NCBI RefSeq assembly: GCF_003019035.1
Contig: NZ_CP027447.1
Source: Escherichia coli
GTDB lineage: Bacteria > Pseudomonadota > Gammaproteobacteria > Enterobacterales > Enterobacteriaceae
Length of the DNA stretch: 64,000 nt
Strand: one strand, 5' to 3'
Position numbers and translations under genes: made by a program. This document shows, one piece after another, positions 1-2,313 of the stretch. The notes beneath the pieces are model-generated. The model saw nothing but the letters and a program-made list of their open reading frames with translations. It did not search any database and was not told where the DNA came from. Each line of letters starts with the position of its first letter. The first letter of the stretch is position 1.

Positions 1-188
1 ATGGTAGTTATGCTCGGGTTTTGACTGCTCCATGTCGTTCACTGCTACTTGATCAGCAAAGCACTCCTGACAGTAAGTACCGTTTTATTCTTAAATAGAA
101 AATAACAGCTGAATTACCATGGGAGCAGAAAAAAGACAAAGGCGATATCATGCTGCGTTCTAAAATTTTAATGTAAAAGGTGATGAAC

Positions 189-290
189 ATGGCAGGGATT
201 CAGGTTATCGCAGGAAGTTTTCCTAAAGGGTGGGCAAGCATGGGGTTCGGTACCATCGTGTTTGCCACCAATCCATGGAACGATGGGTAA
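189..290 (+). other. small ORF (33 aa, MAGIQVIAGSFPKGWASMGFGTIVFATNPWNDG) with SD AAGGTG 6 nt upstream
   Basis: My own translation; good Shine-Dalgarno spacing; followed by palindrome and terminator. No recognisable family. Confidence 0.2.
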
Positions 291-410
291 TGTCTGCATT
301 TTCATAATCTGTAAGCCTTTTACAATTATTAAAAATATGGCAGGCTAGTCTGGTCTCGCGAGACTGACTGAACCTCGGTCGGCTCACAGTGCATTCCTGT
401 GGGACGATGG

Positions 411-448
411 CCAGCCCGGCTTTCGGGTGCCGGGCTGGTCGTTCTTTC
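411..448 (+). terminator. rho-independent terminator (10-bp stem CCAGCCCGGC / GCCGGGCTGG, then T-rich TCGTTCTTTC)
   Basis: Perfect inverted repeat with 8-nt loop followed by a T-rich run on the + strand. Confidence 0.55.
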
Positions 449-494
449 ATGATGCGGCAGGGATAGTGGGATTTCTGTTAATGTGGTTTAGGGA

Positions 495-710
495 TTATCC
501 GGGGTGATTGTCTGCCTTTATCTGGTCCAGGGCATAAGTGATCCCTTCAGCAAAAACAGAAGTATCGAACTGCTTTTGTATTTCCTGAAAATGAACAGTG
601 GCACGACAGATACTCAGTTCTCCGCGATGTAACCGGATAATATCTTCCAGAACATTGTTCACTGCTTCGGCACGGCGCTGATGTTCTGTTAACGTTAATC
701 GGGGATTCAT
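495..710 (-). CDS. hypothetical protein, 71 aa
   Basis: ATG preceded by strong SD (AAGGAG, 7 nt spacing) on the - strand; downstream of the NTPase gene in the same orientation. No family recognised. Confidence 0.4.
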   Translation of the reverse strand: MNPRLTLTEHQRRAEAVNNVLEDIIRLHRGELSICRATVHFQEIQKQFDTSVFAEGITYALDQIKADNHPG

Positions 711-1113
711 GATGCACTCCTTAAATGATGATTTTTATGTACTCACCGGCAAAATATTCTGCCGATTACTGAACACGCATCCGGCACCTCAGGTTTTGAT
801 TTATTCTGGTTTTTTCGATATCCCGGACCAGGTTGATCACGACCAGAAAAAGTGCCGGTATTTTATTGATACGCTGATATGGCTTCGGGATAACAGCTAT
901 ATTCGTTACTCTCAGTTGCTGGCTGTGGGAGCGGCTGATGTCGTCCTCACGGAAAAAACGCTCTGTCTGCTCAATGCCATGCCGACCTTTCTGCAGCCCC
1001 GGCCCGTACCATTTAAAGAGTTGCTTCTGGATGCAGTAAAAACCGGCGAAAATGCAGTCATCGCTGAATGCGTATCCCGGATTATGCGTTACGTGTTTAA
1101 TGAACGTAAGTGA
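709..1113 (+). CDS. hypothetical protein, 134 aa (start overlaps the divergent 71-aa ORF start; 3' end overlaps the NTPase gene 3' end)
   Basis: ORF-track ORF; weak SD-like GGGGA before ATG. Could be spurious antisense ORF. Confidence 0.25.
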   Translation: MMHSLNDDFYVLTGKIFCRLLNTHPAPQVLIYSGFFDIPDQVDHDQKKCRYFIDTLIWLRDNSYIRYSQLLAVGAADVVLTEKTLCLLNAMPTFLQPRPVPFKELLLDAVKTGENAVIAECVSRIMRYVFNERK

Positions 1114-1832
1114 GGTTTATCTGCTGTCTGCATAATCCCGATAGCCAGTGCGAGGGGAAGTAATTCCGGGGAAACTCTTTCAAACAGCGATGCCCATTCT
1201 CCTCTCGCCATCACTCTGTCCAGCCCGCCCCCCAGCTGCATTTCAGCAATCTTCCTGATTTCCCGGAACAACGCCGCTTTGATCTCTTCATGCTCAGCTT
1301 TATTTTCCGGTGTCAGAATGTATTCGTCGAAGAACCGGGGAGGCTGGTTAACGGGGATTGTGTTTACCGGGATGTGTTCCTGTTTCCCGTACTTCGGGGA
1401 CGAACAACATTCTGTTGGCTGACCGGTGAGTTTACGTAACTCCTTCATGAGCAGCTCCTGATCGTAAACTGTCATCAGTGCCGCAATGGTGGCATGCAGT
1501 GCATCGGGCAGTATCCAGGGTTGCCGGCCCGTGGGGCATATAACATCCAGTAGCTCATTCGTCCGACAGATACGCTCCTCTCCGTATGACAACAGGCCCT
1601 GTCCCGTGTATTCCTCCAGCCTGATCACTGTGCCAGCCCGTGGCTTCTGCCAGGTCGTCAGATCATCGCCACTCATACGGCGCTCATTCTCCACGTCAGC
1701 AGCATCGACAATGACGCTGTTTCCGAGTTCCTGTTTCACCACTTCCTCTATCCGCGCCAGTACGTAACTTTTACCGCTGCCCACAGGACCGGACACGGTG
1801 ACAGTGATGACCGGATTCAGTGTATGTGTCAT
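1089..1832 (-). CDS. P-loop NTPase, 247 aa, Walker A GPVGSGKS at residues 15-22 (nucleotide/polynucleotide-kinase-like N-terminus), unassigned family
   Basis: Walker A motif read directly; transcribed antisense to the phage late operon; C-terminal 130 aa without recognisable motifs. Confidence 0.6.
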   Translation of the reverse strand: MTHTLNPVITVTVSGPVGSGKSYVLARIEEVVKQELGNSVIVDAADVENERRMSGDDLTTWQKPRAGTVIRLEEYTGQGLLSYGEERICRTNELLDVICPTGRQPWILPDALHATIAALMTVYDQELLMKELRKLTGQPTECCSSPKYGKQEHIPVNTIPVNQPPRFFDEYILTPENKAEHEEIKAALFREIRKIAEMQLGGGLDRVMARGEWASLFERVSPELLPLALAIGIMQTADKPHLRSLNT

Positions 1833-1962
1833 GTTGCATTCTCCTCTGTGAATAATTCATCGTTTATCCTGCACATCCCGTATCCCCGGCTCTCTTAACG
1901 CGCTTTAAAATCCTTCGCGCCCTGTATTTGTGATGCTGTCTCCACCAGACAAGGAGACACAC
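1833..1962. promoter_or_regulatory. divergent intergenic region; 7-bp inverted repeat TGTCTCC(1937-1943)/GGAGACA(1953-1959) whose 3' arm contains the SD of the first late gene
   Basis: Inverted repeat seen directly; position corresponds to the lys late promoter of Mu-like phages. Confidence 0.3.
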
Positions 1963-2313
1963 ATGAAAAACCTGAAAAAATTCATTCCCCCTGTTAAAAA
2001 ACCTCGCCTCAGCGGCTGGCTGCTGACCTCAGTGCTGTTGCTGGGCACCATCGCTCTGGTCTCGCCACAGCAGCTGCCTGTTGTGATCTACAAGCTGGCA
2101 CTCATCACGCTGGCAGCAGTGCTGGGTTACTGGCTTGACCGTTCACTCTTCCCCAAAGCCCGTCCCGGTCAGTACCTGAAACATGAAGACAGGCTGATGG
2201 CTGAAGGGCGTTTCCCTGTGCAGACCGGCCTTCACCTTGTATTTTCTGCTGCGTTAATCCGCCGTGCACTGATTGTTGCAGCGGTCTGTCTGGCTGTGGC
2301 AACAGGACTGTGA
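1963..2313 (+). CDS. membrane protein with 2-3 predicted TM helices, putative holin (ORF-track start 1930 is GTG; ATG 1963 has SD AAGGAG)
   Basis: Hydrophobic segments in translation; directly upstream of and overlapping the endolysin gene. Confidence 0.5.
   Translation: MKNLKKFIPPVKKPRLSGWLLTSVLLLGTIALVSPQQLPVVIYKLALITLAAVLGYWLDRSLFPKARPGQYLKHEDRLMAEGRFPVQTGLHLVFSAALIRRALIVAAVCLAVATGL

Follow-up and report, generated by a model that had tools for sequence, protein, structure and literature searches.

Organization of the locus

The start of a 64,000-nucleotide stretch of Escherichia coli DNA (contig NZ_CP027447.1, assembly GCF_003019035.1; the whole stretch is called the window below) lies in the accessory region of a BcepMu-like transposable prophage. 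In E. coli relatives this region is flanked by ExeA and DDE transposase genes on the left and by holin, SLT, terminase and portal genes on the right; the nearest named phage is PhiKM, classified in Bcepmuvirus. Near its left end the window contains a 33-amino-acid (aa) open reading frame (ORF), a perfect 12-bp palindrome and a terminator-like hairpin, which an initial annotation had combined into one discrete transcription unit for a small protein or a small RNA (sRNA). Here we interpret the ORF as a recombination scar, and the palindrome and hairpin as parts of a structured element that accompanies dam, the gene of a D12-class DNA methylase, and is likely to be an antisense RNA gene resembling plasmid countertranscript RNAs (ctRNAs). 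The features around the ORF are the following.

177-183, plus strand: Shine-Dalgarno (SD) sequence AAGGTGA, read from the sequence, 5 nt before the ATG; it belongs to a 193-aa gene
189-290, plus strand: 33-aa chimeric ORF, made up of the 5' end of the 193-aa gene (codons 1-26) and the antisense of the dam 5' end (codons 27-33 and the stop)
260-267, no strand: recombination joint, an 8-bp microhomology GTTTGCCA common to both parental sequences in a three-way alignment
261-305, minus strand: dam stub, the first 15 codons (MKMQTLPIVPWIGGK) of a D12-class N6-adenine methylase; the intact Dam of relatives starts at the same ATG
168-305, minus strand: 45-aa chimeric ORF, with the dam SD, ATG and 15 codons followed by the antisense of the 193-aa gene stub

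A short ORF at a recombination joint

The start signals of the 33-aa ORF are as good as the initial annotation had described them, with an ATG at 189, a TAA stop at 288-290 and the SD at 177-183 separated from the ATG by a gap of 5 nt. An identical SD and ATG open an annotated 193-aa coding sequence (CDS) in E. coli EC32 (locus L003, 5189-5770), and 27 of 29 residues of the 33-aa product are identical to residues 1-29 of the 193-aa protein, which matches PHROG 12025 (function unassigned) along its full length. A BLAST comparison of the window with 5,426 complete E. coli genomes reveals two sharp breakpoints of homology and separates two types of relatives. In the A type, about 97 genomes match window positions 1-275 and the ATG at 189 opens the 193-aa CDS; in the B type, 634 genomes match the window only from 260 rightwards, and in the records examined a D12-class Dam methylase of 254 aa is encoded on the minus strand from an ATG at window position 305. 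Genomes with an intact copy of this dam number about 600. The three-way alignment identifies the window with the A type as far as ...ATCGTGTTTGCCA and with the B type from GTTTGCCACCAATCC... on. At the joint the A type reads ...ATCGTGTTTGCCAAAAAACCA and the B type ...GGCGGCGTTTGCCACCAATCCATGG, and since the window switches from one type to the other within the shared octamer GTTTGCCA, the crossover is placed there.

This arrangement demonstrates that illegitimate recombination at the 8-bp microhomology joined the 5' end of the plus-strand 193-aa gene to the 5' end of the minus-strand dam and deleted most of both parental genes. The 33-aa ORF and its 45-aa mirror are, by the same comparison, by-products of that event. 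The joint is present in only two of the 5,426 genomes, those of CUVET21-PYO5 and A24, where it bears no annotation and PGAP calls no 33-aa ORF. Conservation of the 33 codons in related sequences, whose absence the initial annotation had itself named as refuting its reading, is lacking: the frame exists in three sequences only (the window, CUVET21 and A24), and their sole difference, A16V, is non-synonymous, so that the frame, with no synonymous bias, does not behave as a conserved small ORF. Outside these three carriers the 5' part continues as the 193-aa gene and the 3' part is dam antisense. The small-protein reading founders on the same point, as the frame crosses the joint, with 26 codons from one gene and seven from the antisense of another. 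Having a genuine SD and ATG, the stub may be translated, and the 45-aa mirror ORF might be expressed too; nothing suggests that the 33-aa stub is a gene.

A structured element linked to dam

To the right of the joint, the window contains a conserved element with the following parts.

332-451, plus strand: the whole dam-linked structured element, about 100-120 nt (covariance models R1, 143.6 bits; R2, 106.6 bits)
315-324, no strand: dam SD region AAAGGC (complement of 315-320) and -35-like TTTACA (319-324, plus strand), from the family alignment; putative promoter role
341-346, plus strand: putative -10-like hexamer CAGGCT, spaced 16 nt from the preceding TTTACA and 6 nt from the palindrome that follows
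342-375, plus strand: hairpin P1, an imperfect long stem with the palindrome at its tip, -10.6 kcal/mol
353-364, plus strand: perfect palindrome GTCTCGCGAGAC, the apical stem of P1, read from the sequence
383-403, plus strand: hairpin P2 (CUCACAG, 7-nt loop, CUGUGGG); in close relatives the stem is invariant and the loop free
406-449, plus strand: hairpin P3 (core 411-438, extended 406-443) and pyrimidine-rich tail UCGUUCUUUCA, a terminator-like 3' end

Loci with this element were retrieved from IMG/VR by exact element words (43 and 51 loci), and the same words were searched in species-representative genomes. A further 80 loci were collected independently of the element, through the Dam protein only (64-98% identity). 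Covariance model R1 was built from close relatives and R2 from the matches of R1 in the Dam-retrieved loci; both find a single copy in the window, at 332-451.

The element is strictly linked to dam. More than 100 loci of phages and prophages have it directly upstream of a D12-class dam or a com-dam pair, in antisense orientation. Among 57 loci retrieved by sequence, an intact Dam of 254-256 aa starts about 34 nt to the left of the element in 51, the exceptions being the three scar carriers and three loci with a degraded dam. Where Dam alone guided the retrieval, R1 finds the element just upstream of dam on the opposite strand in about 60 of the 80 loci, and R2 adds more. The dam-less A-type prophage lacks the element. 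Carriers among the species representatives include Pantoea, Citrobacter, Mixta, Intestinirhabdus, Trabulsiella, Buttiauxella, Limnobaculum and Ca. Erwinia. Among named phages the element occurs in PhiKM, KP12, Pseudomonas B3, Burkholderia phiE125, Burkholderia KS9 and Vibrio VP882, with R2 scores of 81 bits in phiE125, 75 bits in VP882 and 68 bits in B3, where it stands upstream of com-dam; KS9 is also matched. The element as such is absent from Rfam and from all genome annotations inspected.

The boundaries of the element are sharp. Homology among relatives stops directly past the tail, at 449-450, and the neighbours to the right vary between at least three contexts. Klebsiella phage KP12 and Escherichia phage Phi06_2974 B match window positions 260-450 only, and strain A24 matches positions 1-450 and diverges beyond. 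The segment 260-450 behaves as a unit. The single discrete unit of ORF, palindrome and hairpin proposed initially therefore falls apart, for the palindrome and hairpin accompany dam and not the ORF.

Several individual loci deserve mention. Many distant cassettes (L105-L111, L151 and others) carry an ORF for a Mu Com-like zinc-finger protein between the element and dam. The annotation of B3 has two tiny CDSs, ORF45 and ORF46 (L151, 997-1222), which overlap the element, located at 1126-1246 on the opposite strand; both are probably artefacts. One decayed copy (L054) has a truncated dam and a palindrome mutated to GTCTCACGAGAC, and dam is degraded in L013 and L039. In Pantoea stewartii (L059) unrelated sequence cuts the left side of the element at about window position 346.

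Covarying stems and the strand of the element

The three-hairpin structure, all of whose stems covary, is directly visible in the alignments. In the model-fitted alignment, 93.6% of cells pair, compared with 73.7% in shuffles, and none of 500 shuffles reaches the observed value; double-sided changes occur in 28 of 33 pairs, and slid controls pair at 35-49%. A MAFFT alignment that was not fitted to the structure gives 93% paired cells for P2 against 83% in shuffles (shuffle maximum 86%), and 87% for the P3 core against 67% (maximum 70%), with pair switches of the kinds A-U/G-C, A-U/U-A and C-G/U-A. The same three kinds are seen as compensatory changes of P2 in distant relatives (A-U to G-C, A-U to U-A and C-G to U-A). 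In P3, double changes affect 13 of 15 pairs, and compensatory pairs appear already among close relatives. Two smaller hairpins, SL1 and SL2, which RNAalifold had predicted from close relatives, were replaced by the long P1 hairpin once distant relatives were compared.

The core of P3 consists of 10 perfect pairs (arms 411-420 and 429-438) around an 8-nt loop, at -23.2 kcal/mol; its extension to 406-443 brings up to 15 pairs and -30.8 kcal/mol, and the tail TCGTTCTTTCA that follows runs to 449. Perfect hairpins with 10-bp stems would occur by chance 0.41 times per window, compared with about seven loci observed. Close relatives keep the stems of P2 and P3, and the loops vary in sequence and in length (6 or 7 nt; 8, 9 or 11 nt). 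Because these insertions and deletions are not multiples of three, the element is non-coding on either strand. The P3 tail is invariant in 57 close relatives. Per-pair divergence is 0.35 at third codon positions of dam against 0.09 in the element, a difference partly forced by the retrieval method; no retrieval word came from the tail or the 3' arms, and these are invariant.

Which strand would be transcribed? The evidence favours the plus strand. The consensus folding energy is -49.8 kcal/mol for this strand and -29.6 kcal/mol for the other; the family alignment holds 175 G.U cells against 48 A.C cells, and one-sided changes in the close set yield U.G on the plus strand in 15 cells and A.C in one; and the T/C-rich tail follows P3 on the plus strand only. 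The element is therefore best read as a probable plus-strand RNA. The sRNA proposed initially survives to this extent, as a structured element favouring a plus-strand RNA that would end at about 449, but such an RNA would be independent of the ORF and would begin downstream of it, at about 343-353.

The palindrome at the tip of P1

The 12-bp palindrome GTCTCGCGAGAC noticed initially is indeed perfect and present once, but it lies at 353-364, eight positions from the 345-356 given at the time. By itself it is not statistically unusual, because the window contains fewer 12-bp perfect palindromes (nine) than order-1 Markov simulations (19 +/- 3.8), and no second copy beyond chance was found in the 64 kb. 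What singles it out is its behaviour in the family. The 51 distinct members have 34 different palindromes at this position, 8-20 nt and mostly 12-20 nt long, of which examples from subfamilies are GTCATCGATGAC, GCCTCGCGAGGC, CTGATGGCCATCAG, TTTCGTGCACGAAA and CTTTCAGCGCTGAAAG, and further CCTACCGGTAGG, GCTCACGCGTGAGC, CCTACGTAGG and ACCGTAGCTACGGT. About half of them include one G.T wobble. The central four bases (357-360 in the window) are self-complementary in essentially all members, as CGCG, TGCA, GGCC, ACGT, TCGA, CCGG, AGCT, GATC or GTAC. Since the symmetry is conserved and the sequence is not, a hairpin is favoured over a sequence-specific operator, and the palindrome probably constitutes the 5'-terminal hairpin of the RNA. 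Symmetry that extends through the very centre is not required by an ordinary RNA loop.

Promoter-like and terminator-like signals

Upstream of the palindrome, 40 of the 51 distinct members have a hexamer of the TAnnnT type at a distance of 4-7 nt, mostly 6; variants in relatives are TAGGCT, TAGAAT, TAAACT and TAGACT. In members without com, TTTnCA is found 16-17 nt upstream of the hexamer, overlapping the complement of the dam SD. In the window, the geometry of TTTACA and CAGGCT would suit a sigma-70 promoter, from which an RNA of about 97 nt would start at about 352-353, the first base of the palindrome. Alternatively, the AAAAAT block would direct a start near 343, and the RNA would then take in a longer P1 with its outer AGGCU/AGCCU pairing. 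This outer portion shares sequence with the -10-like hexamer and is for that reason uncertain. We also considered a sigma-54 promoter (TGGCAG...) and rejected it, as the -12 element is absent and the site is not conserved.

At the other end, the 10-bp stem described initially at 411-448 is present, as the P3 core, but its designation as a terminator is less secure, for a terminator scan gives no call in the window, because the extended stem takes up part of the T-rich tail; the scan did call the orthologous hairpin of KP12. The tail UCGUUCUUUCA has 7 U in 11 positions, and the stem is worth -23 to -31 kcal/mol. No candidate terminator other than P3 was seen from the truncated plus-strand operon (helix-turn-helix (HTH) gene, 328-aa gene and stub) to the convergent 71-aa gene. 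P3 resembles intrinsic terminators in its GC-rich stem of 10-15 bp, short loop, T-rich plus-strand tail and position at a module boundary. It differs from them in that the tail is short, interrupted by C and partly paired with the base of the stem, and in that the terminator forms the last third of a larger structure. A role as a minus-strand terminator was rejected for want of a T-run on that side. Nor would the predicted plus-strand RNA represent read-through from the repressor gene, since intact relatives have a separate terminator between repressor and dam. One such relative (L002, 3251-3275) shows a terminator-like hairpin of 10 pairs followed by TTTGCTT between the convergent repressor and dam genes.

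Similarity to plasmid countertranscript RNAs

An Rfam search of window positions 1-2000 at E <= 10 gives no match to family RF00236 (ctRNA_pGA1) and only noise, to which we assign the matches to CC0196 (15.5 bits, on the bare hairpin) and Mu-gpT-DE (14 bits, near the holin gene). Relatives of the element behave differently. Two Burkholderia-type loci (L147 and L138) match RF00236 over its whole 79-nt model with 44.4 bits (E about 1e-5), which is 0.6 bit below the gathering cut-off of 45 bits, and others score 29-34 bits; among the approximately 35 loci searched, no other family of Rfam 15 came near. According to its Rfam description, ctRNA_pGA1 is the countertranscript RNA of Corynebacterium plasmids of the pGA1 family, where it negatively controls rep. 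The RF00236 consensus corresponds to Corynebacterium plasmids, and related plasmids such as pTP10 were used for the reciprocal comparison. There R2 matches the ctRNA locus of C. striatum plasmid pTP10 from end to end (30.6 bits, rough E 3e-9), and the locus, in antisense orientation, directly precedes the start codon of rep.

In both cases a small RNA, predicted here, is encoded antisense to the partner gene and begins a few tens of nucleotides before its start codon, and a hairpin with a 7-nt loop precedes, on the same strand, a second hairpin that is long and GC-rich and leads into a U-rich tail (P2 at 383-403, P3 at 406-443 and the tail to 449 in the window); the R2 alignment includes a P1-like first hairpin in pTP10. 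The partner here, however, is a phage Dam methylase and not a plasmid Rep, the context is a prophage and not a replication-control region, the hosts are Proteobacteria phages and not Actinobacteria plasmids, and the first hairpin has a perfectly palindromic tip. As the score is below the cut-off, the partner gene and replicon differ and the overlap with a target leader is a prediction, we call the element ctRNA-like and do not assign it to RF00236.

A second comparison is offered by phage Mu, whose com-mom region holds a DNA-modification gene under multilayer late control, with Com as a translational activator. Both systems place an elaborate dedicated control region directly upstream of a phage DNA-modification gene, and distant dam cassettes have a Com-like gene. 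The enzyme here is a D12-class Dam instead of Mom, there is no sequence similarity, and the Mu mom region is not known to encode a structured antisense RNA. A candidate RNA motif named D12-methyl may also be located upstream of D12-class adenine methyltransferase genes, an association that it would share with the element. Literature searches on sRNA in BcepMu-like or Mu-like prophages, on the element sequence and on the 'D12-methyl' motif returned nothing relevant, and the single match to the sequence is an unrelated human TCTCGCGAGA promoter motif.

Neighbouring features

The gene downstream of the element, a 71-aa gene on the minus strand (495-710), converges with the plus-strand unit, so that the two meet tail to tail and not head to head as stated initially. 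One further feature stands between them.

478-490, plus strand: TTAATGTGGTTTA motif, part of a neighbouring late-promoter-like region and not of the RNA; it follows the RNA tail in all relatives

The motif TTAAYGNNGTTTA is found 30 nt past the RNA tail (478-490) and again at 1895-1907, about 55 nt before the holin start codon, and is a candidate activator-dependent late promoter element. Relatives that lack the module of 71-aa, 134-aa and NTPase genes have the motif past the RNA tail leading directly into the holin leader and gene. Because the motif adjoins holin in these relatives, the module at 495-1832 appears to have been inserted between two motif copies. Within it, a 134-aa plus-strand gene (PHROG 2266, 709-1113) is nested between two minus-strand genes; CUVET21-PYO5 lacks window positions 763-1080 and with them the 134-aa gene. 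The ribosome-binding site of holin (GGAG) is enclosed in an inverted repeat GTCTCC...GGAGAC (1920-1965) with a weak Mu-gpT-DE match (14 bits, cut-off 49), and this repeat might act as a hairpin that controls translation.

The slot between the repressor and lysis genes is a hot spot for cargo (window 1-290; L003 3654-5770; L002 2809-4046), occupied either by the dam cassette or by an HTH gene together with a 328-aa protein (PHROG 10002) and the 193-aa glycine-zipper/transmembrane protein (PHROG 12025). The 328-aa and 193-aa proteins have no Pfam or PADLOC match, and the same scans of the neighbouring proteins yield no defence-system or family assignment except for Dam and HTH.

Discussion

Taken as a whole, the evidence makes it likely that the region joins two accessory modules of a BcepMu-like transposable prophage, with the 33-aa ORF as a scar and with a ctRNA-like gene for an antisense RNA, left over from the dam cassette, at 332-451. 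This gene would be an orphan in the window because its presumed target, dam, has been deleted.

What could be the function of such an RNA in an intact cassette? We propose that the element is transcribed on the plus strand from a weak promoter of the sigma-70 type (TTTACA, 16 nt, CAGGCT), and that the RNA would extend from about the first base of the palindrome to about 449, terminating at P3. In intact cassettes it would pair with the complementary leader of dam transcripts that start upstream, for instance by read-through from late operons. Such transcripts would come from co-directional late genes in phiE125, B3 and VP882, and from the co-directional 71-aa and NTPase genes in prophages of the window's type. 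By analogy with the control of rep by ctRNAs, the pairing would limit Dam synthesis until late infection. P3 would in addition shield the genes beyond it from plus-strand transcription. In the simplest relatives these genes are the lysis operon, and there a promoter-like motif and the leader of the holin gene are found 35 nt beyond the element.

The symmetry of P1 invites a more speculative extension, which we consider possible but rather doubtful. The 5' hairpin might be under selection for perfect palindromy, with loop-loop or duplex pairing between identical or mirror-image hairpins setting the level of Dam expression. A mobile dam cassette would then carry its own ctRNA, akin in architecture and perhaps in descent to the copy-control ctRNAs of plasmids, and would have spread with it among Mu-like, lambda-like and telomere phages of Gamma- and Betaproteobacteria.

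A number of observations weigh against the antisense model. The 5' end of the RNA, its promoter and its termination at 449 are all predictions. The -10-like hexamer of the window, CAGGCT, is poor, and the -35-like hexamer owes part of its conservation to being the complement of the dam SD. The putative -10 falls within the outer stem of P1, so that the two readings of this segment cannot both be fully right. The U-tract is short, interrupted by C and passed over by the terminator scan in the window. The window copy has no Rfam match at E <= 10, and the E-values of R1 and R2 are rough. Comparison of the RNA with the ribosome-binding region of dam yields short, inconsistent matches only and no consistent trans-complementarity, one example being an 11-nt match of the tail to the dam start codon region in the KP12 type. 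In close relatives with a divergent right-hand neighbour (holin), a dam transcript that carries the complementary leader has no obvious point of origin. If dam had a promoter only next to its SD (a candidate is TGcCATATT at 342-334 on the minus strand), there would be no overlap between the RNA and dam mRNA.

Among the alternatives, the element could be a cis-acting 5' leader of the dam mRNA, transcribed on the dam strand and acting as an attenuator, a switch sequestering the ribosome-binding site or a stability element. Its invariable position directly upstream of dam or com-dam agrees with this, as do the co-directional upstream genes of phiE125, B3 and VP882, whose read-through would transcribe the complement of the element. 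The AGGCU/AGCCU segments and the dam SD region AAGGCU(UAC) could pair alternatively, and the minus strand also folds better than shuffles (z -4.2). We nevertheless regard a leader as unlikely, since the consensus fold is 20 kcal/mol weaker on that strand and G.U cells outnumber A.C cells by 175 to 48. A conserved U.G pair of P2 would become a C.A mismatch on the dam strand, the pyrimidine-rich tail exists on the plus strand only, RF00236 and R2 match the plus strand, and the shared AGGCUUAC word is not universal.

Equally improbable in our judgement is an insulator that operates at the DNA level, with divergent overlapping promoters for dam and for a throw-away transcript, a terminator, and no function for the RNA itself. 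The AT-rich AAAAT/ATTTT block and the TAnnnT hexamer between dam and the palindrome would fit such a scheme, homology ends exactly past the tail, and in the simplest relatives the terminator lies 35 nt before the promoter-like motif and gene of holin, where read-through would be harmful. An insulator leaves unexplained, however, the covarying P2, the 5' palindromic hairpin and the conserved sequences between helices (AGCCUUGG, GGUCGC), all of which persist across phages of enterobacteria, Pseudomonas, Burkholderia and Vibrio with differing neighbours.

The case for the palindrome as an operator for a dimeric DNA-binding regulator of dam is very weak. The perfect dyad would overlap both the plus-strand RNA start and the -35 position of dam's candidate promoter, and the palindrome is nearly invariant among close relatives. 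The family at large has 34 different palindromes in its place, between conserved flanks and next to a conserved Dam, no DNA-binding protein covaries within the cassette, no second copy accompanies it in the 64-kb window, and two natural variants (a loop change and a U.G pair) fit a hairpin.

A genuine small-protein unit, with its own SD, regulatory palindrome and terminator, is less probable still. A good SD and ATG are followed on the same strand by a hairpin with a T-rich tail, and the stub, having kept the start signals of a real gene, may well be translated; but homologues exist for residues 1-26 only, as the N-terminus of the 193-aa protein, the last seven codons are dam antisense, the unannotated joint occurs in two of the 5,426 genomes, and the palindrome and hairpin travel with dam.

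The idea that the element is the leader of a late (lysis) operon in the manner of lambda PR' or 6S RNA, read through by an antiterminator, can be dismissed almost entirely: the order of promoter-like hexamer, structured RNA of about 100 nt with terminator, and holin on one strand holds in some close relatives, but in phiE125, B3 and VP882 the late genes around the element run on the opposite strand, dam-less prophages of the same type are without it, and in the window opposite-strand genes precede holin.

Concluding remarks

As a small-ORF finding the present case is ordinary. It carries a lesson for annotation: a small ORF that has an SD and lies in a prophage hot spot may turn out to be the scar of a gene fusion, as exposed here by the breakpoints of homology. 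The by-product of the analysis is probably of wider relevance: an unannotated and widely distributed structured RNA tied to phage Dam methylases, with an architecture like that of plasmid ctRNAs and a curious palindromic hairpin at its 5' end. Phage Dam methylases have a bearing on the evasion of restriction, on the expression of host genes and on virulence, and to our knowledge little has been established about the control of their expression. A structured RNA opposite the dam start in well-studied phages such as B3, phiE125, KS9 and VP882 would provide a testable handle on this control, and suggests that the antisense logic of plasmid copy control may have been reused for a DNA-modification gene.

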